DNA from: Desulfocapsa sulfexigens DSM 10523
GTDB taxonomy: Bacteria > Desulfobacterota > Desulfobulbia > Desulfobulbales > Desulfocapsaceae
Assembly (NCBI RefSeq): GCF_000341395.1
Contig: NC_020304.1
Span: 360,001-392,000 of the forward strand
DNA: 32,000 nucleotides
Direction: 5' to 3'
A program made the position numbers and the translations under genes. Shown here one piece after another: positions 2,396 to 24,104 of the stretch (within the stretch, counting starts at the first letter, position 1; each line of letters starts with the position of its first letter). Below the pieces are notes generated by a model, which was given only the letters and a program-made list of their open reading frames with translations, made no database searches and was not told where the DNA came from.

Positions 2396-2425
2396 GCAGT
2401 TATCTCATCAGTACCTTACAATGAT

Positions 2426-6118: not shown

Positions 6119-7096
6119 TTAAAAAGAATATACTGCAGCCACAGAAAACAAGGATGTCTCCAAATCTACACCCGCATTATTAACGTAGCTGGCACAGTAC
6201 CCGTATGGACTGTAACACCACTTGGAATTTCCCTTGATGGTATCATAATACTCATAAAGGTAGGCAACTTTAATTCCAATATGATCGGTGATGTCATAGG
6301 CCAAAGCAACATCGACACCCCACATTTCCCCCTCATTGAAATCACCATACGATACAAGATCACGCATGTGATGTTGATCAGTCGTCTTCCCCCTCACAAA
6401 AATGCTGCCCGTTACTTTTGCAGCCAGGTGAACCGGCCCGAAGTCACCCGTAACAGCAACCCCAAAATAAGGGGCATCTAAGGTCTGCTCGTAGGTGATA
6501 GCAAGTGCCTGCGGAGGAAACGTCCCTGCGGTGTCACGAAAACTGTTTATCGAATAGATATAGGAGCCACCTCGTGCCTCCCATTCAAAGCGGTCACGAC
6601 GAAAACCCGCGATGCCATTAAAAACAAATCCATTCGCAGAAAAGAATGTAACTTCAGCATTAATATCAAACATAATTGCGCTGGTAACATCGGTGTTATC
6701 ATGCACTGATTTGTCAGTCCAGTTTACTCCTGGTAGCAACCAGTCGTAATCCTCCATATACCCGTCGCCATCGTTCACATTAAACCAGAGATCAACACCA
6801 AGATTCAACCAGGGTGTGGAGCGAATCGTCGCACCAATTCCAACCATGAGGGTTGAATCCATCTCCCATGTAAGCTCACTTGCAGTATGCCCCCCCACTT
6901 TGGGCCAATAGACATATTCATGAGCTTCACCACTAAGATAGCCAAAGCCCAGGCGACCAGTAAGAATTAAACCAGCTGGTTCACCATAAACCTCAGTCAC
7001 ATCCTTTTTCTCAACCGTAGCAGCATCAACCTGAACAGCAAGCAGCAGAAAAAATATTGGTATTGCAGCTGTTTTTACAGACAAACTCGTTATCAT
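6119..7096 (-). CDS. Omptin-family outer-membrane aspartyl protease (peptidase A26)
   Basis: The segment [48 protein letters not shown] parallels E. coli OmpT [49 protein letters not shown]. The catalytic pairs are conserved: DYD in MEDYDW, and DQH in TTDQHH. The C-terminal beta-barrel ends in AAVYSF. I set the start at ATG 7096 because [26 protein letters not shown] is a signal peptide. The ORF track's upstream start at 7201 would add 35 non-signal residues. Confidence 0.8.
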   Translation of the reverse strand: [325 protein letters not shown]

Positions 7097-7354
7097 CCTT
7101 GAATAGCCTTTTCTCAATAGATCCCTCTCCTCAATTAATTTTCCAGAGACAGACAATAGCCACCAGCCATCTATCCTTTTTAACATCATACATAGTATCA
7201 TTATATGGACAGGAATTCCAATTATTCCACCGGAACGAACATCTCATATCTTGACTACAAAAAAACGTTTTTTTTTTTATAGTACGCAGCCCCTGCCAGG
7301 CCTTCTCGCTCGATACTTTTTTACACTCTTCAGGGCTATTCTATTCCATACGAA

Positions 7355-7383
7355 TTGATGCTATAGTATTATAGTATTATATT
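7355..7383 (+). promoter_or_regulatory. Candidate sigma-70 promoter for the fdx-aor-ED operon (TTGATG-17 nt-TATATT)
   Basis: TTGATG lies at 7355-7360 and TATATT at 7378-7383, separated by a 17-nt spacer. The elements lie about 55 nt upstream of the ATG at 7438, in the divergent intergenic region. Confidence 0.3.
7362..7383. repeat. Short tandem repeat TATAGTAT x2 plus a partial third copy (TATATT)
   Basis: Read directly: ctatagtattatagtattatattc. The repeat overlaps the candidate promoter spacer and -10 element. Confidence 0.6.
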
Positions 7384-7437
7384 CTCAGGAATTTTTTCCC
7401 TTTCAGCTATCTCATCAAGGCAAATCTACAAAAAAAC

Positions 7438-7839
7438 ATGAAAAAACTCACCACCCCAAGAATTGACCGCTGTATTGGTTGTCACTCCTGTTCCCTGGCC
7501 TGCGCACGACTGGTCCACAAACAGATTTCCTGGGACACTGCGGGGATTCGCATACAATCCTCCGGAGGACTCACCACAGGATTCAAAGCCAGTCACTGCT
7601 TGTCCTGTGATCCTGCTCCTTGTGCAGATGCATGCCCCACAGGGGCTTTTTTACAGAGAAAGGGAGGAGGAGTTCTCGTGAAAAAAAAGCTCTGCATCAA
7701 CTGTGGCGAATGCGTCAGTGCTTGTCCCGTTGATGCTGTTTTTCAGGATCACAACGGAGCCGTTTATGTCTGTATCCACTGTGGTCGCTGTGTGGAATTC
7801 TGTCCTCACAACTGCCTTGGAATGGAGGAAACAGCATGA
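7438..7839 (+). CDS. Poly-[4Fe-4S] ferredoxin-like electron-transfer subunit (AOR partner)
   Basis: There are four Cys clusters: CIGCHSCSLAC, CLSCDPAPCADACP, CINCGECVSACP and CIHCGRCVEFCP. The stop overlaps the next gene's start (ATGA at 7836-7839). Confidence 0.88.
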   Translation: MKKLTTPRIDRCIGCHSCSLACARLVHKQISWDTAGIRIQSSGGLTTGFKASHCLSCDPAPCADACPTGAFLQRKGGGVLVKKKLCINCGECVSACPVDAVFQDHNGAVYVCIHCGRCVEFCPHNCLGMEETA

Positions 7840-9584
7840 TTCGTGACCATTTCAGAGTTCTTGTTGTCAATCTTAGATCCGGCAAAGGACAGATTGTCCG
7901 ACTTGACGGTCGTAACACGGAAGCGGGAGGCAGTGGACTTGCCGCTCTTCTCTTTAATAAATATGGCCATGTTGATCGCCTCTGGAACGATCCCGAACAG
8001 CCTGTTATTTTTGCAATCGGCCCGCTCACCGGATATTTCCCACTGATGAGCAAGACCGTTTGCAGCTTTAAATCTCCTTATCATGATCAGTATACAGAAA
8101 GCCATGCGGGAGGTCGTTCTGCACTGTCACTCTGTTTTGCCAACCTTGACGCACTGGTAATTGTGGGAAAATCAGAACGACTCTGCTCACTCACCGTGAG
8201 TTCACGCTCACTTGACATACAAGATGTCTCCTTTATGAAAGGCATGAGTGTGGACGAGACCGGGAAGCTTTTGCGAGGAATGTCACCAGGATCAGGACAC
8301 CGCACTATTATGCGCATTGGCCCGGCCGGTGAAAACGGTGTCGCCATGGCAAACATCAATGTGGACACCTACCGCCATTTCGGCAGACTTGGTGGAGGGG
8401 CAGCCCTTGGTGCCAAAAACCTTAAGGGTATTATCATTTATGGTGATGCTGTTTTCCCCCAGCCCGAATCCAAAGAATACCCAAAACTCTTTACTGAGGT
8501 CTACAGACAGATTACAGCCACCGATATGATGAAAAAATATCACAACCTTGGTACTCCTGCCAATCTGCAGGGCCTCAACGACATTGAATCCCTGCCCTGG
8601 CGCAACCTCCAGGCCACAAGCGATCCTGCAATCGAGCAAATTAACGGTGAGCGTTTTGCCACTGACAATCTGCTCCGCAACTCCGCCTGTTCCGGATGCC
8701 CGGTCGGTTGCATCCACGTCGGCTATGTCCGGGAAATGTTTGATGCCAACCATCGCTACACGTTCAAACAGGTTGCCTATGATTACGAGATGATTTTCTC
8801 ACTTGGCACCATGCTGGGAGTAACCAGTACTCGTTCCGTTCTCAACATCCTTGATGAAATGGAAAAGGCAGGACTTGATGCCATGTCGGGTGGTGTTGCC
8901 CTGGCCTGGGCCACGGAGGCCACTGAAAAAGAGCATATTTCCGAAAAAGAAACAGAGGTGAAACTTTCCTTCGGAGATGCCAAAGCCTACCAGCAGGCGA
9001 CAGTGCTTCTTGGAAATGGCAGCAATCACTTTTACAGGCTCCTTGGCCAGGGAAGCCTCAAGGCCGCAGCGGAATATGGCGGTGCTGACTTTGCCTGTGT
9101 GCTCGGCCAGGAGATGGCAGGCTATGCCACCGGAGAGGTCTTCTTTGCCGCCCAATCCCTTGGTTTCAGGCACTCCCATCTTGACAGCGGAGGCTACTCC
9201 TACGACCAGAAACACTCAGACCAGGATGTTGCAGGCGTGATAGATTTTCTGATAAAGGATGAGGCTGGACGTGCCTTCATGACATCCATGGTTTCCTGCC
9301 TCTTTGCAAGGGGAGTATATAAAGATGCGCTGCTTGCGGACTGTCTTAATTCCGTCGGCTATCCGGAACTTGCTGCAACCATTGACACAGCAGGAGCTCA
9401 TATCCAGAAAATTCGCTGGCAAACAAGGATTGCCACGGGATTTTCTCCTGAAAATATCACTATTCCAAAACGTTTCTTTAAGATTAAGACCTGGAAAGGC
9501 CCCATTGACCCACTCTATCTCAACACCCTAAAGAGCGAGTACGGAAAAGCCATAATCAAGCTTGCAGGAGTTACGACGCTATGA
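7836..9584 (+). CDS. Aldehyde:ferredoxin oxidoreductase family protein (tungsto/molybdopterin enzyme)
   Basis: The AOR N-terminal pattern is present: RVLVVNLRSGKG...GGSGLAALLF...GPLTG...DALVIVGKSE. The [4Fe-4S] motif is CSGCPVGC and a distal Cys lies in MVSCLFARG. The pterin-binding-like motif is GLDAMSGG. The gene is ATGA-coupled on both sides, at 7836 and 9581. Confidence 0.85.
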   Translation: MIRDHFRVLVVNLRSGKGQIVRLDGRNTEAGGSGLAALLFNKYGHVDRLWNDPEQPVIFAIGPLTGYFPLMSKTVCSFKSPYHDQYTESHAGGRSALSLCFANLDALVIVGKSERLCSLTVSSRSLDIQDVSFMKGMSVDETGKLLRGMSPGSGHRTIMRIGPAGENGVAMANINVDTYRHFGRLGGGAALGAKNLKGIIIYGDAVFPQPESKEYPKLFTEVYRQITATDMMKKYHNLGTPANLQGLNDIESLPWRNLQATSDPAIEQINGERFATDNLLRNSACSGCPVGCIHVGYVREMFDANHRYTFKQVAYDYEMIFSLGTMLGVTSTRSVLNILDEMEKAGLDAMSGGVALAWATEATEKEHISEKETEVKLSFGDAKAYQQATVLLGNGSNHFYRLLGQGSLKAAAEYGGADFACVLGQEMAGYATGEVFFAAQSLGFRHSHLDSGGYSYDQKHSDQDVAGVIDFLIKDEAGRAFMTSMVSCLFARGVYKDALLADCLNSVGYPELAATIDTAGAHIQKIRWQTRIATGFSPENITIPKRFFKIKTWKGPIDPLYLNTLKSEYGKAIIKLAGVTTL

Positions 9585-10291
9585 ATCATTCAATAAACCT
9601 TCATTCATTTTCGGACAAAGATAGCCTGATCACAGACCTTACGCTTAAAATCGCTGCTCTGCTCAATGCCGGAATAAAAAAAAATGGCCGGGCAGGCCTT
9701 GCCGTATCCGGTGGTTCCACTCCAGTCCAGCTCTTCAAGAGTCTCTCAAACAGTGATATTCCGTGGCATACTGTTGACATCACCCTTGTCGATGAACGCT
9801 GGGTTCCACCCGACAACCAGGATTCCAACGAACATCTGGTACGCAGCCACCTCCTGCAAAACAGGGCCGCAACTGCGAGCTTTACCGGCATGTGGAACAC
9901 TGCAGCAACGGCACAAGATGGAGAGGCTCTGTGCGCAGAGCGATTACAGAACACCCACCATCCCATTGACGTATTAATACTGGGCCTTGGAAATGATGGC
10001 CACACTGCCTCTCTTTTCCCCGGAGCTGCCAGGCTCCCCCAAGCCACCGATATGAATTCAGGAAAAATCTGTATGGCTATTACTCCGGTTACGGCACCCC
10101 ACGAACGAATGACCCTGACCCTTCCCGCAATTCTTAACGCAAAACAGATTTTTCTCCATATCACAGGACAGAACAAGAAAGATGTCCTGGAGCAGGCGCT
10201 TGGTGATGGCCCTTCAGAAGAAATGCCAATCCGTTTTATCCTGCAGCAACAGACACAAAAAACAAATTTCAACGTCTACTGGGCAAACTAA
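9581..10291 (+). CDS. pgl: 6-phosphogluconolactonase
   Basis: Motifs seen: GLAVSGGSTP, VDERWVPPDNQDSN and ILGLGNDGHTASLFPG. Confidence 0.92.
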   Translation: MNHSINLHSFSDKDSLITDLTLKIAALLNAGIKKNGRAGLAVSGGSTPVQLFKSLSNSDIPWHTVDITLVDERWVPPDNQDSNEHLVRSHLLQNRAATASFTGMWNTAATAQDGEALCAERLQNTHHPIDVLILGLGNDGHTASLFPGAARLPQATDMNSGKICMAITPVTAPHERMTLTLPAILNAKQIFLHITGQNKKDVLEQALGDGPSEEMPIRFILQQQTQKTNFNVYWAN

Positions 10292-10303
10292 TGGAGAAAT
10301 ACT

Positions 10304-12133
10304 ATGCATAGAGTTGTTGAACAGGTTACAAATCGCATTATAGAACGGAGTAAACCACATCGTCAAAGCTACCTCCAGCGTATCGACGAGGCAAAGGGTG
10401 ACGGAGTTTTTCGTAACAGCCTGCCCTGTCCCAATCTGGCCCACGATCTCGCCGGATGTGTCGGAACCTGTCGCAGCTCTCTGCTCGATGCCAGTGTTCC
10501 CAACATTGCGATCATCTCCGCCTATACCGATATGGTCTCAGCCCATCAACCATATGGCAAATATCCCGAGATTATCAAGGAATCCGTTGCCAAAGCCGGC
10601 GGTAATGCCCAGTTTGCAGGTGGTGTTCCCGCCATGTGCGATGGTGTCACCCAGGGTGAGGCAGGAATGGATATGAGCCTTATGAGCCGTGACGTCATCG
10701 CCATGTCAACTGTTATCGGCCTGTCACACAATGTCTTTGACGGGGCCATCCTCCTTGGTGTATGCGATAAAATCCTGCCAGGACTCCTTATGGGGGGGCT
10801 GCAGTTTGGCCACCTGCCCATGATTCTTATCCCTGCAGGGCCAATGACCTCAGGGATTGCCAACAAAGACAAAAACACGGTCAGGGAGGCATACGCAAAG
10901 GGTGAGGTCGGTCACGCTGAACTTCTCGCATCGGAAGTGAAAGCCTATCACAGCCCCGGAACCTGTACCTTCTACGGAACGGCTAACTCCAACCAGCTCA
11001 TGGCGGAAATGCTGGGTATGCATCTCCCCGGCAGTTCTTTTGTAAATGCCGGGACAAAACTCAGGGAGGCCCTCACCCGATCCGCAGCCGAACGTATCAC
11101 ATCACTTACCCACCTGGGCAGAAACTACACGCCTCTTGCCCATGTGATCAGTGAAAAGGCAATCGTGAACGCCATTGTCGGACTTATGGCCACGGGCGGC
11201 TCCACCAACGAGACCATGCACCTGGTGGCCATTGCCCGCGCCGCCGGAATACGCATTGACTGGAATGATTTTGCGGAAATTTCGGATATCACCCCTCTTC
11301 TGGTACGTATCTATCCCAACGGTTCAGGTGATATCAACTCCTTCCAACGGGCTGGAGGTATGGCCCTTCTTATTCGAGAGTTACTCAAGGGTGGACTTCT
11401 CCACGAAGACGTACAAACCGTAGCAGGAAAGGGCTTTGCACAATACACCGAGGCACCTCTGCTAGAAAATGGCCGGACGGTGTGGCGAAAGGGGCCCGAA
11501 CAGGCAGGAGACAGCACTGTCATCGCAACGGTAAACAAACCCTTTGAATTACTTGGCGGAATCAAAGTCCTCTCCGGTAACCTTGGCCGGGCGATCATGA
11601 AGATATCGGCCCTTGCCGATGGTGAAAAAACCTTCGTTGAGGCACCCGCCATGGTCTTCAACTCCCAGCAGGAGCTTGAAGATGCCTTTAAGGCTGACAG
11701 ACTCAACAGAGATATGGTCGCGGTAGTTCGGTTTCAAGGGCCTCGTGCCAACGGCATGCCGGAACTCCATAAACTGATAACCCACCTTTCTATCACCATG
11801 GATAGGGGCTACAAAGTCGGACTGGTAACGGATGGCCGTCTTTCCGGTGCTTCCGGCAAGGTTCCTTTTGCCATCCACTGCACTCCTGAGGCGGTAACAG
11901 GTGGACTGCTGAACAAGGTCCAGGATGGAGATATCATCTGCATGGATGCTCACAACTCCATCTTGGAACTGAAAGTCAATGAGGAGGAGCTGGGGAAACG
12001 TCAGGCCTTCGTTCACAATCTGGATGCCACCCGTTACGGACTCGGGAGGCAGGTTTTTGCTCCGCTGCGAAAGAATCTGCTCGGGGCCGAAGAGGGAGCA
12101 AGTTCCATCTTCACGTATAGGGACGAAAACTAA
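10304..12133 (+). CDS. edd: Phosphogluconate dehydratase (Entner-Doudoroff dehydratase)
   Basis: The protein is collinear with E. coli Edd from end to end. Shared segments include [79 protein letters not shown] and PEA..GG. Confidence 0.96.
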
Positions 12134-12178
12134 CCAGAAGAGCAACAACCACCTCAAACCGAACACCGGGGTATTCAT

Positions 12179-12817
12179 ATGAACAACATAAACAACTGGA
12201 AACGCTCTGCTCTCGACATCCTCAAAACCGGTCCCGTGGTGCCGGTAATTGTGATTCACGATCTCGACCATGCCGTCCCCCTTGCAAAGGCTCTTGTCGC
12301 AGGCGGCATCAAAGTACTGGAAGTCACTCTGCGCACTCCTGTTGCCATTGAGGCGATCAGAATGATCAGTGAAGAAGTGCCGGATGCCATTGTCGGTGCC
12401 GGAACAGTAGCCACAGAGGATGACTTAGACGCAGTTGCTGCCGCCGGTGGAGTTTTCGCCATCAGTCCGGGACTGACCCCTGCCCTCCTCAGCGCTGCAA
12501 TCAATGGACCCATCGCACTGATTCCTGGGATATCAACAGCATCCGAACTGATGCTGGGCATGGAGTACGGCCTCAGAGAATTCAAGTTCTTTCCGGCAGA
12601 AGCAGCCGGAGGAATACAGATGATCAAAGCCATTGGAGCTCCTTTTCCACAGGCGACCTTCTGCCCCACCGGCGGCATCTCTCCCGAGAATTACAAAAAG
12701 TACCTCGGTCTTGGAAACGTCGCCTGTGTCGGTGGATCATGGCTGGCACCAGGAGATGCTATGAAACAGGGCGCGTGGCAGAAGATAACAGATCTTGCCC
12801 GTAAGGCTCTGGCCTGA
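12179..12817 (+). CDS. eda: 2-keto-3-deoxy-6-phosphogluconate (KDPG) aldolase
   Basis: Motifs seen: VVPVIVI...[27 protein letters not shown] and [11 protein letters not shown] (Schiff-base Lys context). Length is 212 aa. Confidence 0.93.
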
Positions 12818-12832
12818 GAGAACAGGATTTAA

Positions 12833-13681
12833 ATGATCACAAACAAAAATACTCCGGGCAGTTTTGACTATATTGAAATCCAGAACGCAAGCGCCAACGC
12901 CAGAGTGGCTCTGCAGGGTGGCCACCTCTTTCATTACCAGCAGCTCCACAGAAAACCTCTGATCTGGCTCAGCGGAAAAAGTCCTTTTGAAAAGGGAAAA
13001 GCGATCCGGGGCGGCATTCCGGTCTGCTGGCCATGGTTTGGACAACACCCCACCGATTCGTCCCTGCCGCAACACGGTTTGGCACGGACATCCCTCTTTG
13101 AACTCATCGATTCCCAGGAACCCGACGAAAACAGCACCGAACTCCTGCTGCAGCTGCAGAGCTCAGCCGAAACACTCAGCATCTGGCCCTATCGATTCCA
13201 ACTTTTACTAAAAATAACCGTCGGCCCAGCACTCACCCTTGCCCTTACGACCAAAAACTCCGACACAAAACCGTTTACAATCACTTCAGCTCTCCACAGT
13301 TACTTTGCCATCGACGATATTGGCAAGGTGTCTGTTCAGGGAATGGATGAGACTGAATACCTGGATCTTCTGACCAACCAGACACTGATCCAACGGGGCA
13401 GCATTCATATTGATAAAGAAGTTGACAGAGTGTATCGGAAAAGTGCGAACACAGCACTGCTTCTCGACGGTACCAGAACTGTTCAGATACGCTCAGAGGG
13501 ATCTTCATCCACTGTTATATGGAACCCATGGAGCGACAAGTCAAAAAGCATGTCCGATATGGAGGACGATTCCTATCAAACCATGCTTTGTATCGAAACG
13601 GCAAATGCCAAACAGGACGCACGAACTATTGCATCCGGTGAAGAACATTGTCTGAAGGTATCTTTGACAGAATCTGTATGA
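12833..13681 (+). CDS. D-hexose-6-phosphate mutarotase (glucose-6-phosphate 1-epimerase, YeaD-like)
   Basis: Segments match E. coli YeaD: ALQGGHL, IRGGIPVCWPWFG, HGLAR, TSALHSYFAIDDIGKVSVQG, DRVY and CIETANA. Confidence 0.88.
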   Translation: MITNKNTPGSFDYIEIQNASANARVALQGGHLFHYQQLHRKPLIWLSGKSPFEKGKAIRGGIPVCWPWFGQHPTDSSLPQHGLARTSLFELIDSQEPDENSTELLLQLQSSAETLSIWPYRFQLLLKITVGPALTLALTTKNSDTKPFTITSALHSYFAIDDIGKVSVQGMDETEYLDLLTNQTLIQRGSIHIDKEVDRVYRKSANTALLLDGTRTVQIRSEGSSSTVIWNPWSDKSKSMSDMEDDSYQTMLCIETANAKQDARTIASGEEHCLKVSLTESV

Positions 13682-13724
13682 ATTTTTTTCAGAAAAGAGA
13701 ATATTACACTCTCAAGGAGACAGG

Positions 13725-16262
13725 ATGGATCTAAAACAAAAAGAAGATTCCCGAAAAGAACGTATACAAAAACTCAAACGCGGTTTCGCCTATAACATTT
13801 TCTACCGACAGGGAGTTACCCAAAAAACTGCAAGCCTTAATGATTACTACCTTGCGGTGGCCCACACCCTAAGAGACCGGATGCAGCATCTCTTTGTCAA
13901 TTCGGTACAGGCACTGCTGGAAAAAGACTCCAAGATAGTCTGCTATCTCTCCGCCGAATTTCTCACAGGTCCACACCTGCATAACAACTTGGTCAATCTT
14001 GGGCTTTATGAAGAGTTTGAACAGGCAACCCGGGAAACAGGCTTGAACCTCAAGGAACTTATCGACCTTGAAGAGGAACCAGGACTCGGTAACGGTGGCC
14101 TGGGAAGACTTGCCGCCTGCTATCTGGACTCACTCGCCTCCCAGCAGATTCCGGCAATCGGTTACGGTATCCGTTACGAGTACGGCATGTTTGACCAGGA
14201 AATCGCCGATGGCTGGCAAAAAGAACTCAGCGATTGCTGGCTCCACCCGGGTAATCCCTGGGAGATCAAAAAGGCCGATATGGCCTGTGACGTTGGATTC
14301 GGTGGACATACAGAAATATACCACGGAGAACACGGCAACCGACGAACACGCTGGATTCCTGCCCGGGTCATCACCGGGGTTCCCTACGACACCCCTATCC
14401 CAGGTTACAAGGTCAACAATGTCAACGTACTGCGCCTATGGAGTGCTGAAGCGCCCACATCCTTCGATTTTGCAGACTTTAACACCGGTGATTACTATGG
14501 AGCAGTCAAAGATAAAATAATGGCCGAAACCATCACCAAGGTACTTTACCCCAATGACGAGCAGTTTCAGGGCAAGAAACTGCGCCTGGAGCAGCAGTTC
14601 TTTTTTGTTTCCTGCTCTCTTCAAGATATGATTCGCATTCATCTCCATAGCAATGAATCCCTGGATGATCTCTACGATGATTTTGCAGCTCAGCTCAACG
14701 ATACCCATCCATCCGTAGCAGTACCGGAGTTAATGCGTCTCCTGATGGATGTCCATCTTTACGAATGGGATAAGGCCTGGGAAATCACCAAAAAGACACT
14801 CTGTTACACCAACCATACCCTGCTGCCCGAGGCCATGGAAAAATGGCAGATTGAGCTCTTCGAAGATCTTCTGCCCCGCCATCTTGAAATTATCTATGAA
14901 ATCAACAACCGCTTTCTGGATGAGGTTCGGATTAAATTTCCAGGTGATGCTGACCGTCTGAGCCGGATGTCCATTATCGATGAATCCGGCCCCAGATATG
15001 TGCGAATGGCCAACCTTGCCTGTATAGGCTCCAAGGCCATTAACGGGGTGGCTGCCATGCACACGGATCTGCTGCGCAGACATACCCTGGCCGACTGGAA
15101 TACCATGTATCCCGGTAAAATTCGTAATGTCACCAACGGTGTAACCCCCAGACGCTGGATTGCTGTAAGCAACCCCCGTTTAACCAAACTTATATGCGAC
15201 GCTATTGGGGAACAGTGGATCACCCGGCTCGACAAATTGAGAGACCTGGAAAAACTGGCAGATGATACCTCATTCCGGGATGCCTGGTATAAAGTCAAAA
15301 AAGAGAACAAGCAGGACGTAGCCAACCTAATCCTGAAAAAAGAACATCTGCAAATCGATCCGGAGGCGATGTTTGATGTCCAGGTTAAACGAATTCACGA
15401 GTACAAACGACAGCATTTGAATGTACTCCACATCATCACCCTCTATAACCGGATCAAGGCCAATCCGGCCATAGACGTCCCGCCCCGTCTCTTTGTCTTT
15501 GGTGGAAAGGCTGCCCCCGGTTACTTTATGGCCAAACGAATGATCAAACTGATCACCTCGGTGGCCCAGATCATAAATAATGACCCCGACATCCATGGCC
15601 GGATTAAAATATTTTTTATTCCCAACTACAATGTCAAGATTGGCCATATCGTCTACCCCATGACCGACCTTTCCGAACAGATTTCCCAGGCTGGAATGGA
15701 AGCCTCGGGGACCGGCAACATGAAATTCTCCATGAATGGCGCTCTCACCATCGGCACCCTGGATGGAGCCAATGTAGAGATTCGTGAAGAGGTGGGAGCA
15801 GAAAACTTTTTCCTTTTCGGACTCAATGTGGATGAGGTCATGAGTCTTCAGGCCTCGGGATATTCCCCAATGGACTATTACAACAGTAATGACGAATTGA
15901 AACAGGTCATTGACCTGATTGCATCGGGCCATTTTTCAGGCGGTGATCAGGAATTGTTCCGTCCTCTTGTCGACTCACTGCTGCATGAAGATAAGTATAC
16001 ACTTTTTGCTGACTATAAGGACTACATCAACTGCCAGGAGAGAGTTGGCCAAACCTATCAGGACAGGGATTGCTGGACCAGGATGTCGATCCTGAATACA
16101 GCACGAATGGGTAAGTTCTCTTCAGACCGCTCAATTATGGATTACAGCAGAAAGATATGGGACGTCAAAGCTTTTCCCGTTGAACTGAAGTGGGAACGAC
16201 TCCCCAAGGACGGAGTCCTCTTTACTCCCCCGACAAACAATAAAAAGGAAGCCCAGCCATGA
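13725..16262 (+). CDS. glgP: Glycogen/maltodextrin phosphorylase
   Basis: Motifs seen: GLGNGGLGRLAAC, the PLP-Lys region EASGTGNMKFSMNGALTIGTLDGANVEI, and RIHEYKRQ. Length is 845 aa. Confidence 0.96.
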   Translation: MDLKQKEDSRKERIQKLKRGFAYNIFYRQGVTQKTASLNDYYLAVAHTLRDRMQHLFVNSVQALLEKDSKIVCYLSAEFLTGPHLHNNLVNLGLYEEFEQATRETGLNLKELIDLEEEPGLGNGGLGRLAACYLDSLASQQIPAIGYGIRYEYGMFDQEIADGWQKELSDCWLHPGNPWEIKKADMACDVGFGGHTEIYHGEHGNRRTRWIPARVITGVPYDTPIPGYKVNNVNVLRLWSAEAPTSFDFADFNTGDYYGAVKDKIMAETITKVLYPNDEQFQGKKLRLEQQFFFVSCSLQDMIRIHLHSNESLDDLYDDFAAQLNDTHPSVAVPELMRLLMDVHLYEWDKAWEITKKTLCYTNHTLLPEAMEKWQIELFEDLLPRHLEIIYEINNRFLDEVRIKFPGDADRLSRMSIIDESGPRYVRMANLACIGSKAINGVAAMHTDLLRRHTLADWNTMYPGKIRNVTNGVTPRRWIAVSNPRLTKLICDAIGEQWITRLDKLRDLEKLADDTSFRDAWYKVKKENKQDVANLILKKEHLQIDPEAMFDVQVKRIHEYKRQHLNVLHIITLYNRIKANPAIDVPPRLFVFGGKAAPGYFMAKRMIKLITSVAQIINNDPDIHGRIKIFFIPNYNVKIGHIVYPMTDLSEQISQAGMEASGTGNMKFSMNGALTIGTLDGANVEIREEVGAENFFLFGLNVDEVMSLQASGYSPMDYYNSNDELKQVIDLIASGHFSGGDQELFRPLVDSLLHEDKYTLFADYKDYINCQERVGQTYQDRDCWTRMSILNTARMGKFSSDRSIMDYSRKIWDVKAFPVELKWERLPKDGVLFTPPTNNKKEAQP

Positions 16263-17722
16263 GTATGGAAAAGAAAGCATGTGATTTTACTATTTTTGGT
16301 GTGCTTGGAGATCTTTCACGACGCAAACTGATTCCATCACTGTATCAGCTCGACAAGGCGGGTTTACTGGACGAGAACACCCGCATTATCGGGGTGGCCC
16401 GTCATGAACTGAGCCAGGAAGATTTCGCGGCTAAGATGCAGAATAGCCTGGAAACATTCGTTAAGAAAGGACTTGACCCAAAAGTAATGAAACGCTTACT
16501 GGGAAGGCTCCACTATGTACTGATCAATCTGGATGTCCCTGAAGAATACAAACAACTGGAAGAGGTCATTGACCAGGAAAAACGGGTACTGGTAAACTAC
16601 TTTTCAGTGGCCCCTTCCCTCTTTGATGATATCTGCAAAGGTCTTGACCATGCTGGGATTGTCACTCCTGAAACCCGGGTGGTTCTTGAAAAACCCATCG
16701 GCCGTGATCTTGCCTCATCACAGGAGATTAACGATACCGTAGCAAAAGTGTTCACCGAAAATCAGGTCTACCGCATCGACCATTACCTCGGCAAGGAAAC
16801 GGTAATGAACCTTCTGGCACTTCGTTTTGCCAACTCCATCTTCACCACCAACTGGGATCACAACACCATTGATCATGTCCAGATTACCGTGGCTGAGGAA
16901 GTGGGAATAGAAGGGCGCTGGGGCTATTTTGATGAGTCCGGGCAAACACGGGACATGGTACAAAACCATCTGATGCAGATCCTGACCCTGGTGGCCATGG
17001 AACCACCGGTCAACATGGATGGCGATTCTATCCGCAATGAAAAACTGAAGGTACTCAAGGCACTGCGTCCCATAACCGCCGATACCGTCGAAGAAAAAAC
17101 CGTCCGCGGCCAGTATTCAGCAGGATTTATCAAGGGACAGGCTGTTCCCGGCTATCTTGAAGAGCAGGGAGGTAATCCCAATTCGACCACCGAGAGTTTT
17201 GTCGCCCTCCGGGTAGATATCGACAACTGGCGCTGGGCCGATGTCCCCTTCTATCTTCGCACCGGTAAACGCTTAACCACCAAACGCTCAGAGGTGGTCA
17301 TCTATTTCAAACGGCTTCCACACAATATTTTCAAGGACAGTTACAAGAAACTTCCCCGCAACAAGCTCGTTATTCGTCTCCAGCCCGACGAGGGAGTTGA
17401 AATCGAAATGATGAATAAGGTTCCTGGGATTGGGAAAGGTATCAAACTGCAGAAGACCGTACTGGATCTGAGTTTTTCAGATGCCTTCAGCGGTGAACGC
17501 GTGGCTGATGCCTACGAACGGCTCATTCTTGAAACCATGATAGGCAACCAATCACTCTTTATCCGCAGGGATGAGGTTGAACGCTCCTGGCAATGGATAG
17601 ATACCATCCAGAACGCCTGGGCACAATCCAGCGAACCGCCCAAACGGTATCCTGCGGGTACATGGGGGCCTGTTGCCTCGGTTGCCCTGCTGGCTCGTGA
17701 TGGACGGGAATGGGAAGAATAA
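16259..17722 (+). CDS. zwf: Glucose-6-phosphate 1-dehydrogenase
   Basis: Motifs seen: FTIFGVLGDLSRRKL (dinucleotide site), the signature RIDHYLGKE, and QNHLMQIL. The start is ATGA-coupled to the glgP stop at 16259-16262. Confidence 0.96.
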   Translation: MSMEKKACDFTIFGVLGDLSRRKLIPSLYQLDKAGLLDENTRIIGVARHELSQEDFAAKMQNSLETFVKKGLDPKVMKRLLGRLHYVLINLDVPEEYKQLEEVIDQEKRVLVNYFSVAPSLFDDICKGLDHAGIVTPETRVVLEKPIGRDLASSQEINDTVAKVFTENQVYRIDHYLGKETVMNLLALRFANSIFTTNWDHNTIDHVQITVAEEVGIEGRWGYFDESGQTRDMVQNHLMQILTLVAMEPPVNMDGDSIRNEKLKVLKALRPITADTVEEKTVRGQYSAGFIKGQAVPGYLEEQGGNPNSTTESFVALRVDIDNWRWADVPFYLRTGKRLTTKRSEVVIYFKRLPHNIFKDSYKKLPRNKLVIRLQPDEGVEIEMMNKVPGIGKGIKLQKTVLDLSFSDAFSGERVADAYERLILETMIGNQSLFIRRDEVERSWQWIDTIQNAWAQSSEPPKRYPAGTWGPVASVALLARDGREWEE

Positions 17723-17741
17723 CAAGGGACACACATACCAT

Positions 17742-19172
17742 ATGCACATGTTAGCAAACAATAAAACCAAACTGGTCTGCACCATAGGCCCTGCCTCCGA
17801 TTCTCCTCGGATGCTCGAAAAAATGCTTGAAGCCGGGATGAATGTGGCCAGGCTCAATTTTTCCCATGGCGATTTTGCCAGCCATGGCGAAATCATACAA
17901 AGAATCAGGACCGCCTCCGAAAAAACAGGGAAACGAGTTGCCATCCTGGCCGATCTGCCCGGTCCCAAGATGCGCATCCTTGATCTGGCTGAAGAATTCG
18001 TCACCCTTGAAAAAGATGCCTCCTTTATCCTGACTGCAGAAGAAGTTATCGGAACTGCAGAACGGGTCGCAATGACCATGAAGGAGCTGCCAGCTGTGGT
18101 AAGAAAAGGAGATACCCTTTTTCTTAATGACGGATTGATTGAATTACGGGTTCAGAAAGTTCAAGGTGAAGATATCCACTGCACCGTAATTGTCGGCGGT
18201 AAACTCTGGCCGCGAAAGGGCCTGAATATCCCGGGAATTGACCTTGGCACCAGTGCCTTCACCGCCCACGACCGCGAGTGCATGCAGTTTGCCCTGGAAC
18301 ATGGCGTGGATGCTATTGGTCAGTCCTTTGTAAACACGGCTCAGGATGTACTGGATGTGCGTAAAGCCGCCGCTGAAATGGGTTTTGATCCCTTTATCGT
18401 TTCCAAAATAGAACGGGCCAGCGTCTGGGAAAACATCGATGGAATCCTTGAAGTTACAGACGGAGTCATGGTGGCCAGAGGCGACCTTGGTGTGGAAATA
18501 CCCATTGAAGAGATTGCAGTGGCCCAGAAGACAATCACAGCCAGGGCCAACCTGTTTGGCATCCCGGTAATCACCGCAACCCAGATGCTCGAATCCATGA
18601 CCGGGAACCGGAGACCCACCCGCGCTGAATCCACCGATGTCGCCAATGCGATCCTTGATGGTACCGACTGTGTTATGCTCTCTGAGGAATCTGCCATGGG
18701 CGACTACCCCCTGGAGGCCGTGCAGATGCTTGCCAAAATTGCAAGAGTCACGGAACCACACAGATTGCTGCATAACCACTTTGAATTCACATTAAAACCA
18801 CAGGCTACAGGATACACAGCCAGTACCGTTGACATGATAGCTATCTCCATTGAAAATATCTTTTCCCGGATCGATTCTCTGGCGGCTGTACTTGCCCCAA
18901 CACATAGTGGCCATATGGCCAGAGCCCTGACTCGTTTTCGTCTGCCGGTCTGGATTCTGGCAGTATCCACATCGGTCAAGACCTGCCGAGACCTGATGTT
19001 CTCCTATGGAGTACATCCAATACTGGAAAAGAAACGACCGGAAAACTGGACTAACACCGCCAGAAACTATATAAAAACATTCGGGTTAGAGGGAAACTGC
19101 ATGGTTAAAGCCGAGGGTCCCTCACCGGACCATCCGGACATTAACCATAAAATGGAAATCATCGAACTGTAA
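17742..19172 (+). CDS. pyk: Pyruvate kinase
   Basis: Motifs seen: TKLVCTIGPAS, MNVARLNFSHG, ILADLPGPKMR, MVARGDLGVEIP and TQMLESM. I placed the start at ATG 17742 (MHMLANNKTK). It lies downstream of the zwf stop with AAGGGA about 12 nt upstream. The ORF-track start at 17673 would overlap zwf by 50 nt. Confidence 0.93.
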   Translation: MHMLANNKTKLVCTIGPASDSPRMLEKMLEAGMNVARLNFSHGDFASHGEIIQRIRTASEKTGKRVAILADLPGPKMRILDLAEEFVTLEKDASFILTAEEVIGTAERVAMTMKELPAVVRKGDTLFLNDGLIELRVQKVQGEDIHCTVIVGGKLWPRKGLNIPGIDLGTSAFTAHDRECMQFALEHGVDAIGQSFVNTAQDVLDVRKAAAEMGFDPFIVSKIERASVWENIDGILEVTDGVMVARGDLGVEIPIEEIAVAQKTITARANLFGIPVITATQMLESMTGNRRPTRAESTDVANAILDGTDCVMLSEESAMGDYPLEAVQMLAKIARVTEPHRLLHNHFEFTLKPQATGYTASTVDMIAISIENIFSRIDSLAAVLAPTHSGHMARALTRFRLPVWILAVSTSVKTCRDLMFSYGVHPILEKKRPENWTNTARNYIKTFGLEGNCMVKAEGPSPDHPDINHKMEIIEL

Positions 19173-19182
19173 GCGTGCAACC

Positions 19183-20388
19183 ATGAAAATACTGGTATTA
19201 AATTCCGGTTCTTCCTCTCTCAAATTCCAGCTTTTCTTGAAGGAAGATCTTTCCGTGCTGGCCTCTGGGCTGGTGGAACAGATCGGCGACACCCAGAGCG
19301 GGGCCGAACTCACTTTTAATGATTCCTCGGGCCTGAAAAAAAATTTCAGCCGAAAACATTCAATAGCTGATCACCGTGATGCCATCCAGGTAATGTACGA
19401 GATGCTGGAGGAAAGCGGGACGCTTGTTAGCACAGGAGAGCTGGCAGGAATTGGACACCGGGTTGTCCATGGCGGAGAATCCTTCCATCTACCAGTCCGT
19501 ATTGACGCTCACGTCATTGCAGCCATCGAAGAGCTGATTCCTCTTGCCCCTCTCCATAATCCAGCTAATCTTACCGGAATCAGGGTAACCATGGAGCATG
19601 CGCCAAAAACTCCCCAGGTTGCTGTCTTTGATACAGCCTTCCATCAATCCATACCCGAGCATGCCTACCTTTACGCCCTTCCCTACAGTTTATACGAGAA
19701 ACAAAAAGTTCGACGTTACGGTTTTCACGGTACCTCCCATGGATATGTGGCACGACAGGCCGCAGGCCATCTCAAACGACACATTGAGGATTTGCACATT
19801 GTTACTCTTCATCTGGGAAACGGAGCCAGTGCCGCAGCCATCAGGGGTGGAGAATGCATTGACACCTCCATGGGGATGACACCGCTTGAAGGGCTGGTCA
19901 TGGGGACCCGCAGTGGTGATCTTGATCCGGCCATCCTCTTCTATCTCAACCGGGAAATACATATGGGCATGGACGAACTTGACGCCCTGCTCAACAAGGA
20001 GAGTGGTTTGAAGGGCATTTGCGGTGAAAACGACATGCGTAGTATCAGTGTTGCTGCGGAACAGGGAGACCGTCAGGCCAGACTTGCTCTTGGCATTTTC
20101 TGCTACCGCTTGAAGAAATATATCGGTGCCTATATGGCGGCTCTTGGCGGGGCGGACTGTATCGTGTTCACCGGGGGAATCGGAGAAAATTCGGCAATTG
20201 TTCGTGAATTGAGTTGTCAGGGGTTGGAACGACTGGGTATCTCTCTTGACAGGAAGAAAAACACTATCCGCCAAAAGGAGATCTTGGAAATCCACAGCGC
20301 TGACAGCCTGATCAACATTCTGGTCATCCCCACCGATGAAGAACATGAGATCGCCAGCCAGACCTTGGGGGTTATTACTTCTTCATAA
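19183..20388 (+). CDS. ackA: Acetate kinase
   Basis: Motifs seen: MKILVLNSGSSSLKFQLF, GHRVVHGG, HNP.N, RYGFHGTSH, FTGGIGENS and IPTDEE. Confidence 0.96.
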   Translation: MKILVLNSGSSSLKFQLFLKEDLSVLASGLVEQIGDTQSGAELTFNDSSGLKKNFSRKHSIADHRDAIQVMYEMLEESGTLVSTGELAGIGHRVVHGGESFHLPVRIDAHVIAAIEELIPLAPLHNPANLTGIRVTMEHAPKTPQVAVFDTAFHQSIPEHAYLYALPYSLYEKQKVRRYGFHGTSHGYVARQAAGHLKRHIEDLHIVTLHLGNGASAAAIRGGECIDTSMGMTPLEGLVMGTRSGDLDPAILFYLNREIHMGMDELDALLNKESGLKGICGENDMRSISVAAEQGDRQARLALGIFCYRLKKYIGAYMAALGGADCIVFTGGIGENSAIVRELSCQGLERLGISLDRKKNTIRQKEILEIHSADSLINILVIPTDEEHEIASQTLGVITSS

Positions 20389-20442
20389 GCAGCCCACGAG
20401 TGACCTGAGTAATGCTGGTTGATAGGTCTATCTTACCCCACA

Positions 20443-20480
20443 CCGGTTCAACGGAGGCAGCACGCCATCCGCTGAACCGG
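20443..20480. terminator. Hairpin between the convergent ackA and katG genes (possible bidirectional terminator, no U-tract)
   Basis: The arms are ccggttcaacgga and tccgctgaaccgg with a 12-nt loop, giving a 13-bp stem. It has one A-C mismatch in the plus-strand RNA and a G-U wobble in the minus-strand RNA. No flanking T-run is present on either strand. Confidence 0.35.
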
Positions 20481-20520
20481 CTAGTAATGATCATTGACCT
20501 CAAAGACGCCTATGCTGCAA

Positions 20521-22743
<2,223 letters not shown>

Positions 22744-22749
22744 TTAGGA

Positions 22750-22779
22750 GGGAACAACACTGACCACAGCGCTGTTCCC
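22750..22779 (-). other. Strong strand-specific RNA stem-loop between rbr (22808) and katG (22710)
   Basis: The minus-strand RNA reads GGGAACAGCGCUG-UGGU-CAGUGUUGUUCCC. This is a 13-bp stem including two G-U pairs, with a 4-nt loop. In the plus-strand RNA the two wobbles become A-C mismatches. No U-tract follows. Confidence 0.5.
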
Positions 22780-22807
22780 TTTCAGCTGTGCAGTCTCAGT
22801 ACATTCT

Positions 22808-23308
22808 CTATTGAATTTGTACGAAAACAGTTTTTTTTGCTCTACATACCGGGCAGTTCTCGGGAGGCTGACCAAACTCTATATAGCCACAGACTGGACA
22901 GAGATAAAAATTGACCTCATCAAGATCCTTGCCACTCTTTACTGCCTCAAGTGCCTTTTGGTAGAGCTCGGCATGAACGGCTTCTGCCTTTACTGCAAAA
23001 TTGAACATGCGTTTAGCTTTATGTCCCTCTTTCTCTGCCTGCTCAAGCATTGGTGGATACATATCAGTAAATTCATGTGTTTCACCACTTATCGCATCGT
23101 TAAGATTTTCAGCAGTTGATCCAACCTTTTCCAAGGCCTTCAAGTGGCCTTCTGCATGAATCCGTTCTGCTTCTGCTGTGGTTCTAAACAGCTTTGCAAT
23201 ATTAGCAAACCCTTCTTTTTCGGCCTTCGCGGCAAAAGCTCTGTATTTCATATTTGCCTGGCTTTCGCCGGCAAAGGCTTCCATAAGGTTTTCAGTTGTC
23301 GATCCCAT
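22808..23308 (-). CDS. rbr: Rubrerythrin (short form, 166 aa)
   Basis: Diiron four-helix motifs are present: ESQANMKY, EAERIHAEGH and EAVHAE. The C-terminal rubredoxin-like pair is CPVCGY...CPVC. SD GAGGTGG precedes the ATG. Confidence 0.92.
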   Translation of the reverse strand: MGSTTENLMEAFAGESQANMKYRAFAAKAEKEGFANIAKLFRTTAEAERIHAEGHLKALEKVGSTAENLNDAISGETHEFTDMYPPMLEQAEKEGHKAKRMFNFAVKAEAVHAELYQKALEAVKSGKDLDEVNFYLCPVCGYIEFGQPPENCPVCRAKKTVFVQIQ

Positions 23309-23365
23309 TATCCCACCTCGTTTAATTTAAAAAAGATTAATCATTTTTTTATGATAGTTGTGTTG

Positions 23366-23941: not shown

Positions 23942-24069
23942 CTGTTTTCCTCCTTTTGTTGTCTGCGTTTCTTAATCTTGCGATAAATTCACACCCAAAG
24001 AAGTGCAGTGTTGGTTTTGAGCAACAACATTTATTCAGTCAATTCGCCCCAATATCTATAGACACCTAA

Positions 24070-24086: not shown

Positions 24087-24104
24087 GGGAGGCGCAAAAA
24101 AAAA

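Follow-up and report, generated by a model that had tools for sequence, protein, structure and literature searches.

The window that we have studied is a stretch of 32,000 nucleotides from Desulfocapsa sulfexigens DSM 10523 (contig NC_020304.1, positions 360,001 to 392,000). Ten genes are found on its + strand between positions 7438 and 20388, in the order fdx, aor (AOR family), pgl, edd, eda, a gene similar to glucose-6-phosphate 1-epimerases, glgP, zwf, pyk and ackA. The listing of open reading frames agrees with the strand and positions given in a preliminary description of this locus, and the ten identities proposed there are all backed by Pfam and NCBIfam profiles. Four genes code for the core enzymes of the Entner-Doudoroff (ED) pathway: glucose-6-phosphate dehydrogenase (zwf, 16259–17722; TIGR00871 628 bits, cut-off 401), 6-phosphogluconolactonase (pgl, 9581–10291; TIGR01198 202 bits, cut-off 124), 6-phosphogluconate dehydratase (edd, 10304–12133; TIGR01196 913 bits, cut-off 708, model positions 3–600 of 601) and KDPG aldolase (eda, 12179–12817; NF004325 298 bits, cut-off 241, and TIGR01182 259 bits). 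All the profile-matched genes are full length and no lesions are visible, as it had been noted before for edd and eda. After eda comes a 282-aa YeaD-type hexose-6-phosphate mutarotase (glucose-6-phosphate 1-epimerase, 12833–13681; Pfam Aldose_epim), which matches the structures of YeaD (2hta, 1e-45) and of the yeast hexose-6-phosphate mutarotase (2ciq, 3e-31). It is followed by a glycogen/alpha-glucan phosphorylase (glgP, 13725–16262; TIGR02093 1176 bits, Pfam Phosphorylase 1099 bits). Pyruvate kinase (pyk; TIGR01064 498 bits) and acetate kinase (ackA, 19183–20388; TIGR00016 481 bits, Pfam Acetate_kinase 485 bits) complete the run.

The genes are tightly packed on a single strand, as it is normal in bacterial operons. 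ATGA overlaps of start and stop are present exactly at the three places described before: 7836 (fdx/aor), 9581 (aor/pgl) and 16259 (glgP/zwf). The remaining gaps measure 12 nt (pgl-edd), 45 nt (edd-eda), 15 nt (eda-epimerase), 43 nt (epimerase-glgP) and 10 nt (pyk-ackA). A special case is pyk: its longest reading frame (17673–19172) starts at a TTG and would share 50 nt with zwf. Since this frame matches the Pfam PK domain only from residue 30 onwards, the true start is most likely the ATG at 17742 or the one at 17748, so that 19 or 25 nt separate pyk from zwf. With either start the earlier range of gaps, from -4 to 45 nt, holds.

From their sequences, fdx and aor are predicted to form a cytoplasmic two-subunit tungsten-type oxidoreductase, with a small subunit WorS and a large one WorL. 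WorS (fdx, 7438–7839) is a ferredoxin-like protein of 133 aa with matches to Pfam Fer4 families. It has four Cys4 motifs (Cys 12/15/18/22, 54/57/62/66, 86/89/92/96 and 112/115/118/122), enough for four [4Fe-4S] clusters; no Tat signal is present in its sequence, and it matches the Fe-S subunit of WOR5/ASOR (6x6u_B) over nearly its full length. WorL (aor, 7836–9584) is the tungsto/molybdopterin subunit, with 582 aa and the domains AFOR_N and AFOR_C, and we consider it a candidate GOR-like member of the AOR/WOR family. It keeps the Fe-S cluster ligands C285/288/292/488 and all four second-shell catalytic residues (T240/E318/Y430/H448), a pattern which is reported in the literature for the GOR clade and not for archaeal GAPOR. 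In its clade both pterin-contacting Asp of classical AORs are replaced, by E343 and T483. Genes for tungstate transport or pterin biosynthesis are absent from the window.

WorL is connected with the GOR clade by way of a single labelled Methanosarcina sequence, WP_011022903.1 of M. acetivorans, with 43% identity over 512 aa (E = 4e-148), whereas identity with other members of the family is about 30%. This sequence is labelled GOR in the supplementary tree of Szaleniec and Heider (2025), alongside C. bescii WP_015907364. Among solved structures the best match of WorL is 1aor, with only 144 bits. In a neighbour-joining tree the group of WorL is split from 23 generic WOR representatives with 100/100 bootstrap. 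Membership in the GAPOR clade was also considered, and we reject it because a WorS partner is present and Tyr430 and His448 are kept.

The closest relatives of WorL and Edd are found in metagenome-assembled genomes (MAGs) of Desulfocapsa or Desulfobulbaceae. Another species-level Desulfocapsa MAG (L003) has the identical ten-gene order and the same omptin neighbour, with 66–92% amino acid identity. In at least 16 Desulfobulbales loci fdx-aor remains joined to ED and glgP genes, in at least five different orders. Some of these clusters have additional genes: L024 has pta and pgm, L028 has pta, while L012 and L013 have malQ (GH77), a ROK kinase and glgX. It had been asked whether the arrangement is common in related genomes and already described. 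In shuffled forms it is indeed common among Desulfocapsa and Desulfobulbaceae genomes; our literature search found no paper describing the ten genes together. The conserved order in L003 and the rearranged clusters of the relatives, in which the same genes have been assembled again and again, support the earlier idea of a module dedicated to the conversion of glycogen to acetate through the ED pathway.

A wider set of 83 metagenomic loci contains WOR orthologues 62–85% identical to those of the window; many of these loci are only 2–6 kb long. Glycolysis or glycogen genes lie within 5 kb of the WOR pair in 27 of them: pyk (9), glgP (7), eno (6), gpmA (6), pfk (5), pgm (4) and glgX (3). Among the first two genes to either side of the pair, the top Pfam families are pyruvate kinase, PFK, enolase, PGM, phosphorylase and phosphoglycerate mutase. 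The density of panel genes is 14.4 per 100 kb up to 2.5 kb from the pair, compared with 4–7 per 100 kb farther away, and 38 of the 40 genes in this inner zone are on the same strand. In the loci surveyed a GAPDH motif never adjoins the WOR pair; it is present only in the gammaproteobacterial loci recovered with Edd, which have the usual zwf-pgl-edd(-eda) order and in several cases a GAPDH-motif ORF beside edd. A PGK-motif ORF is found inside the WOR cluster of one locus (L118).

The relative in the GOR clade, the glycolytic neighbours and the absence of an adjoining GAPDH motif lead us to propose that WorLS most likely oxidises glyceraldehyde-3-phosphate (GAP). It would be a candidate GOR-like GAP:ferredoxin oxidoreductase, converting GAP derived from Eda into 3-phosphoglycerate. 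The pair might instead be a broad-spectrum aldehyde:ferredoxin oxidoreductase which detoxifies or scavenges aldehydes and is only co-located with the other genes, GAP being handled by GAPDH and PGK elsewhere. Most characterised members of the WOR family do oxidise a broad range of aldehydes, and the four catalytic residues of WorL are those of the generic enzymes. About two thirds of the 83 loci, many of them of the short length mentioned, show no glycolytic neighbour, and two more distant members of the clade (53% and 37% identity) sit in unrelated contexts, not accompanied by sugar genes. However, the pair has stayed with ED and glgP genes through at least five independent rearrangements, and same-strand pfk, eno, gpmA and pyk are far denser next to it than 2.5–10 kb away. 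GAPDH is never its neighbour, and the nearest relative labelled in the literature is a GOR. A broad-spectrum enzyme thus appears unlikely to us.

Upstream of the ten genes, on the - strand, there is an omptin gene; downstream, also on the - strand, are katG, two rubrerythrins and a regulator of the Fur/PerR family, in agreement with the rubrerythrins and PerR described before. A promoter is likely placed in the divergent region between omptin (-) and fdx (+), at 7202–7437, where the signals are consensus matches only: a sigma-70-like match (7355–7383) and an A7/T10 tract (7259–7278). The region also contains a short tandem TATAGTAT repeat (7363–7384); it has no match in Rfam, and no Shine-Dalgarno sequence is visible at the start of fdx. 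Between the convergent ackA (+) and katG (-) a stable hairpin is found at 20443–20480, which is probably the end of the ten-gene unit. The predicted RNA fold of 20386–20525 has -43.5 kcal/mol (z = -2.64 compared with shuffles); the hairpin has no U tract.

Transcription of all ten genes together is suggested by translational coupling and by gaps free of terminators. Two or more transcription units, for example fdx-aor-pgl-edd-eda, epimerase-glgP-zwf and pyk-ackA, kept together by shared ancestry or transfer, could also be considered. Internal promoters could be housed in the gaps of 45 and 43 nt, clusters of the relatives are broken exactly at such points, and pyk contains a sigma-70-like match (18829–18857). 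But terminator-like sites are no more abundant than in shuffled controls (18 in the region, 14.2 ± 4.6 in the controls), and all 18 lie outside the intergenic gaps of the run. Besides the three ATGA overlaps, the other gaps have only 10–25 nt and the sole strong hairpin comes after ackA, so that a division into several units is quite improbable.

Taken as a whole, we think it rather probable that the ten genes make up a single catabolic unit, which would lead from an internal alpha-glucan reserve to acetate through the ED pathway, with GAP as the most likely substrate of WorLS. GlgP would free glucose-1-phosphate with Pi, at no cost of ATP, and a phosphoglucomutase encoded elsewhere would give alpha-glucose-6-phosphate. 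The mutarotase would supply the beta-anomer which Zwf requires; Zwf, Pgl, Edd and Eda would then produce pyruvate and GAP. WorLS would oxidise GAP directly to 3-phosphoglycerate, with electrons passing to ferredoxin, as GOR does in C. bescii, and bypass GAPDH and PGK, which may well be present elsewhere in the genome as they are in C. bescii. Phosphoglycerate mutase and enolase, also encoded elsewhere, would lead to Pyk and ATP; pyruvate would be converted by PFOR and Pta, again from other loci, to acetyl-phosphate, from which AckA would form ATP. We expect each glucosyl unit to give about 3 ATP, and ferredoxin would end up with most of the electrons. That the absent steps must be encoded elsewhere had been stated before; of these, pta (L024, L028) and pgm (L024) are present in the clusters of relatives.

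We infer that the unit serves an internal reserve; external sugars or maltodextrins are another conceivable source. Enzymes of the GlgP family also act on maltodextrins (NF011561 gives 928 bits, under its cut-off) and some relatives have added malQ and a ROK kinase. Yet no gene for a transporter, a PTS, a secreted glycosidase or a glucokinase is found in the window, and GlgP, GlgX, MalQ and Glk are the classical set which degrades glycogen inside the cell. The isolates of Desulfocapsa disproportionate sulfur and make little use of sugars, and we give very little credit to an external supply. Reductive operation of the WOR, in which reduced ferredoxin would reduce a carboxylic acid (e.g. acetate to acetaldehyde) so that the fermentation disposes of its electrons, is extremely improbable: AOR-type enzymes can reduce non-activated acids with low-potential donors (PMC9295118), and ackA, with the formation of acetate, belongs to the same unit, but no alcohol dehydrogenase is found in the window or among the recurrent WOR neighbours, which are genes of lower glycolysis and not of acetate or ethanol metabolism, and the nearest labelled clade is GOR.

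The four core enzymes, all above equivalog cut-offs here, are shared with the classical ED clusters of Pseudomonas, E. coli and Zymomonas (zwf-pgl-edd-eda, in some cases also glk). In D. sulfexigens, an anaerobic member of Desulfobulbaceae, the core is joined instead to glgP, the mutarotase, pyk and ackA, as well as to a two-subunit WOR, and the cluster has no glucokinase, transporter or gap gene. For the oxidoreductase itself, a comparable known system is the GOR of C. bescii (Athe_0820/0821), a bacterial GAP:ferredoxin oxidoreductase of Class II WOR, clade 20. [quoted passage not shown] They differ in that C. bescii is a thermophilic Firmicute using EMP, whose gene lies beside tungsten transport and pterin genes and not in a sugar operon, whereas our pair is set within a probable ED/glycogen operon of a Desulfobacterota lineage without evidence of thermophily. 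Archaeal GAPOR (P. furiosus, clade 23), which works in modified EMP and branched ED pathways, would share the proposed reaction, from GAP to 3-phosphoglycerate, linked to ferredoxin and without ATP, and the same consequence for pathway yield. It is however monomeric (Class I) and falls in a clade of its own, and the conserved region with Tyr and His is missing from it. Desulfovibrio gigas, another anaerobic bacterium of the sulfur cycle, uses internal polyglucose as an endogenous energy source, as we propose here, but its route is EMP-based. In cable bacteria, which are Desulfobulbaceae, ED genes have been noted in MAGs at the module level (PMC10030654); the cable-bacteria papers do not describe a ten-gene operon or a link with WOR, nor did our literature search find one.

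In the preliminary description fdx and aor had been taken as generic genes, markers of an anaerobic lifestyle. Their kinship with the GOR clade and their glycolytic context point instead to a step of the pathway, and this is a new point: fdx-aor is probably the pathway's own ferredoxin-linked step for the oxidation of GAP.

We will start with the ten genes found on the forward strand between positions 7438 and 20388: fdx, aor, pgl, edd, eda, epi, glgP, zwf, pyk and ackA. An ORF listing of the window returned ten forward-strand ORFs which agree exactly with the coordinates of the preliminary description, and its three ATGA start/stop overlaps are also found, at 7836 (fdx/aor, where the stop of WorS overlaps the start of WorL), 9581 (aor/pgl) and 16259 (glgP/zwf). 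The only feature of its layout to be corrected is the start of pyk. The longest pyk ORF begins at TTG 17673 and overlaps zwf by 50 nt. Since the PK barrel domain (Pfam) begins only at residue 30 of this ORF, the start is likely to be ATG 17742 or 17748, which would separate pyk from zwf by 19 or 25 nt. Pyk aside, the remaining gaps measure 12, 45, 15, 43 and 10 nt. No frameshift or truncation was seen in any of the ten genes.

The gene names assigned earlier all stand after comparison with Pfam and NCBIfam: the proteins are full length and, wherever a specific model is available, score above its curated cut-off. Edd reaches 913 bits with TIGR01196 (cut-off 708) and IlvD models stay under their own cut-offs: it is a 6-phosphogluconate dehydratase, told apart by NCBIfam from the IlvD-type dehydratases. 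Eda, the KDPG aldolase, has 298 bits with NF004325 (cut-off 241), Zwf 628 bits with TIGR00871 (cut-off 401) and Pgl 202 bits with TIGR01198 (cut-off 124). GlgP, Pyk and AckA match TIGR02093, TIGR01064 and TIGR00016. The unit thus appears to encode a phosphorylative Entner-Doudoroff (ED) pathway, with Edd, Eda, and the enzymes Zwf and Pgl which would make 6-phosphogluconate. A non-phosphorylative pathway acting on free glyceraldehyde is ruled out, as Edd and Eda are phosphorylative equivalogs. For epi and WorL the NCBIfam scan matched no specific model. The epi product (282 aa) has an aldose-epimerase fold, with matches to YeaD (2hta, 1e-45), to 1jov (3e-32) and to the yeast hexose-6-phosphate mutarotase (2ciq, 3e-31). 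By sequence it belongs to the short (about 280–300 aa) aldose-1-epimerase-fold subfamily (YeaD / YMR099C), which includes the characterised yeast enzyme. Its earlier label as a G6P 1-epimerase seems reasonable because of the 2hta and 2ciq matches.

The first two genes form a tungsten-type oxidoreductase (WOR) pair. WorS (fdx, 133 aa) has four Cys4 groups, with capacity for four [4Fe-4S] clusters. The Fe-S subunit of P. furiosus WOR5/ASOR (6x6u) aligns with nearly all of it, and WorS of 9mqx is a further match. Inspection by eye of its N-terminus, MKKLTTPRIDRC, showed no twin-arginine motif. WorL (aor, 582 aa) contains the AFOR_N and AFOR_C domains (Pfam E-values 6.6e-50 and 1e-45) and would carry a bis-pyranopterin cofactor with tungsten (or Mo). 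Its [4Fe-4S] ligands C285/288/292/488 and the second-shell residues T240/E318/Y430/H448 are kept in 33–34 of 34 clade sequences. Judged by these features, the pair is assigned to Class II of the 2026 WOR classification (WorL + WorS, cytoplasmic, ferredoxin-linked), a class whose only two characterised enzymes are PfASOR and the GAP:ferredoxin oxidoreductase (GOR) of C. bescii, CbGOR. A periplasmic or membrane enzyme of Class V (YdhV-like) is ruled out by the absence of a Tat signal and by a score of 77 bits with NF007354, vs a cut-off of 868. The alignment also shows that the pterin-contacting Asp positions of classical AOR are occupied by E343 and T483 across the GOR-like superclade. In the whole superclade RHSHLD replaces the generic RGG[C/D]H.R motif (WorL residues 445–450 region). 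R156, R160, H446 and R479 are basic residues specific to the clade of WorL.

Solved structures are distant from WorL, the best being 1aor with 144 bits. An exhaustive HMMER search gave graded relatives with 53–37% identity (674–340 bits), followed by a fall to about 30% identity and less than 180 bits for generic members of the family. One intermediate cluster is formed by Methanosarcinaceae; its wider clade includes the M. acetivorans protein WP_011022903.1, which Szaleniec and Heider 2025 (PMC12096430) label 'GOR_Methanosarcina' in their supplement, beside 'GOR_Caldicellulosiruptor_bescii'. Over 512 residues WorL and this protein share 43% identity (E = 4e-148). The link to CbGOR (WP_015907364) was drawn through this proxy, so that membership of WorL in the bacterial GOR clade is indirectly indicated. 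A neighbour-joining tree computed from our own distance matrix separates the Desulfobulbales clade, together with the intermediates and the Methanosarcinales sequences, from 23 generic WOR representatives, a split found in 100/100 bootstraps. All four second-shell residues are kept in the GOR clade, as they are in WorL, but not in archaeal GAPOR, which is a monomer with an unrecognisable Tyr/His region (PMC12096430). Unlike GAPOR, the enzyme of the window is paired with WorS and retains Y430 and H448; membership in the archaeal clade is ruled out by these two features. With CbGOR it shares the gene order: in both, the ferredoxin gene comes first and the oxidoreductase gene second. In Methanosarcina barkeri (CP009530, 1221650–1235413; L168 among our genome and metagenome loci, which carry L-numbers) the orthologue of the GOR-labelled protein has an overlapping WorS gene, and a PfkB-family kinase and a sugar-phosphate nucleotidyltransferase are encoded a few kb away. 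This methanogen stores glycogen; the neighbours point weakly to a connection with carbohydrates.

A metagenome scan with the WorL alignment gave 80 loci with orthologues 62–85% identical, and WorS lies directly upstream of WorL in nearly all of them. Together with three earlier loci they make 83. In 27 of these, genes of glycolysis or glycogen metabolism occur no more than 5 kb from the WOR pair: pyk in 9, glgP in 7, eno and gpmA in 6 each, pfk in 5, pgm in 4 and glgX in 3. Among the 35 loci whose flank reaches at least 8 kb, 15 are positive. The density of panel genes is 14.4 per 100 kb up to 2.5 kb from the pair and 4–7 per 100 kb at 2.5–10 kb, and 38 of the 40 panel genes within 2.5 kb are on the same strand. 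In an unbiased Pfam count of the nearest two ORFs to either side, the most frequent families upstream are pyruvate kinase, PFK, enolase, PGM, phosphorylase and phosphoglycerate mutase; downstream they are Ldh/Mdh, isoamylase and PGI. ED genes or zwf are close to the pair in four of the 83 loci. In other lineages it is found in clusters of the EMP type: pyk-gpmA-(PGK motif)-pgm-eno-fdx-aor (L118), glgX-pfk-...-pyk-gpmA-fdx-aor (L096), pfk-glgP-...-fdx-aor-eno-gpmA (L110), eno-pgm-gpmA-fdx-aor (L150), glgP-glgX-pfk-fdx-aor (L160) and fdx-aor-glgX with a divergent pgm (L085). Such clusters, which bring orthologues together with pfk, eno, gpmA, pyk, pgm, glgP and glgX, tie the WOR pair to glycolysis in general and not specifically to ED.

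The GAPDH PROSITE motif was not found beside the WOR pair in any of the 83 loci; it was only found beside edd in gammaproteobacterial loci. Nearly every enzyme from glycogen through glycolysis accompanies the pair except GAPDH and PGK, the sole exception being the PGK-motif ORF of L118. A GAP-to-3-phosphoglycerate oxidoreductase, which would replace these two, is expected to show this pattern. WorLS is therefore a candidate for the oxidation of glyceraldehyde-3-phosphate (GAP) to 3-phosphoglycerate with ferredoxin. The pair could also be a generic aldehyde oxidoreductase; next to the company of glycolytic genes we find this rather unlikely.

The ten genes share one strand; neighbours overlap or are separated by short gaps, and no intrinsic terminator lies between them. 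Their packing and the lack of terminator-like matches in the intergenic gaps, which were scanned against shuffled controls, make co-transcription plausible. Within the unit as a whole, terminator-like and promoter-like matches are not above the shuffled controls. Several transcription units in place of one are unlikely, somewhat less probable than a generic WOR function. Upstream of fdx there is a divergent intergenic region of 236 nt, which adjoins the omptin gene on the reverse strand. Rfam and tRNA scans of the window gave no match, and therefore this leader contains no known riboswitch. It has an A7...T10 inverted tract at 7259–7278 and a tandem TATAGTAT(TA) repeat at 7363–7384, which overlaps the best -10-like element. 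Shine-Dalgarno sequences are recognisable before aor, edd and glgP, not before fdx and ackA. A stable hairpin (20443–20480, z = -2.6) without a U tract is found between ackA and katG.

Both flanks have features of their own. On the downstream side an oxidative-stress cluster (20521–24557, reverse strand) converges directly on ackA: it has katG, which codes for a catalase-peroxidase of 729 aa, then two rubrerythrin genes (166 and 191 aa) and a gene for a Fur/PerR-family regulator (150 aa). A reserve-glucan operon beside such a cluster recalls the oxygen-linked use of polyglucose in Desulfovibrio. Further on there are a 152-aa ORF with no Pfam match (27450–27908), an ammonium transporter (27905–29260, reverse strand), a class-I glutamine amidotransferase (29720–30460) and a NifV-like HMGL protein similar to homocitrate synthase (30504–31637). 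On the upstream side the divergent gene for an omptin-family outer-membrane protease (6119–7201, reverse strand) is an unexpected neighbour; to our knowledge omptins are little studied outside enterobacteria. It is preceded by a signalling cluster (84–6085) with a cNMP-binding and PilZ protein (84–1370), a response regulator with DUF4388 (1382–2395), a hemerythrin-GGDEF diguanylate cyclase (2426–3532) and a PAS hybrid histidine kinase (3602–6085). This may be a c-di-GMP circuit which senses O2 or redox state.

The nearest relatives of WorL and Edd are found in Desulfocapsa and in Desulfobulbaceae MAGs, and the window sequence itself was found again on a Logan contig. The window proteins were compared by tblastn with 80 genome loci retrieved with Edd. 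One other species-level MAG, an uncultured Desulfocapsa (L003), has the identical ten-gene order, with 66–92% amino acid identity in the operon genes, and also the omptin neighbour in the same position (4848–5897, 61% identity). Rearranged forms of the unit are found in other Desulfobulbales genomes: glgP-fdx-aor-pgl-edd-eda(-epi) in L010, L014 and L032, fdx-aor-glgP-zwf-pgl-edd-eda in L020 and L028, glgP-zwf-fdx-aor-pgl-edd-eda in L051, fdx-aor-pgl-edd-eda-glgP-zwf-pyk-ackA in L005 and fdx-aor-edd-eda-glgP-...-ackA-glgX in L012 and L013. Some clusters are free of WOR: ackA-pyk-zwf-pgl-edd-eda (L030, L031, L035) and pgl-edd-eda-ackA-glgX-epi (L009). By synteny the arrangement is a trait of the lineage and no peculiarity of this genome. 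The GC content is 50–54% from aor to eda (8000–13000) and 44–48% in the flanks, and the closest Edd relatives outside Desulfobulbales are gammaproteobacterial (Idiomarina and Pseudomonas MAGs, 59%); both features would fit an ED core acquired horizontally long ago.

Unassigned ORFs in the clusters of these relatives were identified by a Pfam scan. Steps noted as missing from the unit turn up there: pta and pgm in L024, with the order glgP-zwf-pgl-edd-eda-pta-thioesterase-pyk-ackA-pgm, and pta, preceding ackA, in L028. The latter, a Desulfobulbaceae MAG, also has a GGGtGRT-family protein (PF14057) and two small ORFs between eda and pta-ackA (10181–14502). In L012 and L013 a GH77 4-alpha-glucanotransferase (MalQ) and a ROK kinase lie between glgP and ackA. 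The preliminary description had proposed that the unit takes glycogen to acetate by way of ED. The strongest argument at hand for this reading is that the same functional set has been repeatedly re-assembled. That the unit breaks down external maltodextrin or other sugars, a role in which MalQ and the ROK kinase might find a place, has a small probability.

In the route from glycogen to acetate, GlgP would carry out the phosphorolysis of the glucan, Pgm (encoded elsewhere) would give alpha-G6P and the mutarotase would convert it into beta-G6P for Zwf. Pgl, Edd and Eda would then lead to pyruvate and GAP. WorLS would oxidise GAP to 3-PG and reduce ferredoxin, GpmA and Eno, encoded elsewhere, would supply Pyk, while PFOR and Pta, also encoded elsewhere, would supply AckA. 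For each glucosyl unit Pyk would make one ATP and AckA two, with none invested (textbook stoichiometry), and one NAD(P)H would be formed along with three electron pairs at the level of ferredoxin; GAPDH and PGK in place of WorLS would yield four ATP. A gluconeogenic role of the unit is excluded because GlgP, Edd and Pyk are effectively irreversible and all the encoded enzymes are catabolic in direction. Operation of the WOR as an acid reductase is very improbable.

All the enzyme families in the unit are well known, and our findings come wholly from sequence and synteny. They support and extend the glycogen-ED-acetate interpretation. What seems to be new is a bacterial ED/glycogen operon that includes a GOR-like enzyme, and a Desulfobulbales branch of the GOR-like clade in glycolytic contexts. 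GAPOR or GAPN serve ED branches in Archaea. GOR is known from a thermophilic Firmicute which uses EMP, and ED genes in Desulfobulbaceae have already been noted at the module level (PMC10030654). Our literature searches found no relevant link of GOR, GAPOR or AOR to Desulfobulbaceae, cable bacteria or Desulfobacterota, and nothing relevant on Desulfocapsa with ED or glycogen.

The broader proposal is that Desulfobulbales (Desulfocapsa, relatives of the cable bacteria and allied lineages) have an undescribed, non-thermophile GOR branch as the committed GAP oxidiser of glycogen catabolism. In Desulfocapsa, joined to Edd and Eda, it would form a ferredoxin-linked ED variant which skips GAPDH/PGK and sends six of the eight electrons of each glucosyl unit to ferredoxin; breakdown of the reserve polymer would thereby be coupled directly to low-potential sinks (for example H2, sulfur/sulfite reduction or Rnf). 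We consider that this proposal has an even chance of being correct. Tungsten-type ferredoxin-linked glycolysis has so far been characterised only in hyperthermophilic archaea and one thermophilic Firmicute; if the WOR is a GOR, it would also be present in widespread sediment bacteria of the sulfur cycle. One of the numerous WOR clades would gain a concrete and testable function; in a recent classification only 5 out of 92 clades have a member with a defined physiological role. The lower glycolysis of cable bacteria has been reported as incomplete, and the finding would bear on metabolic models of Desulfobulbaceae, cable bacteria included. If true, it would represent a bacterial ED variant with a different balance of ATP and reductant, and could account for the survival of chemolithoautotrophic sulfur disproportionators that draw on stored glucan.
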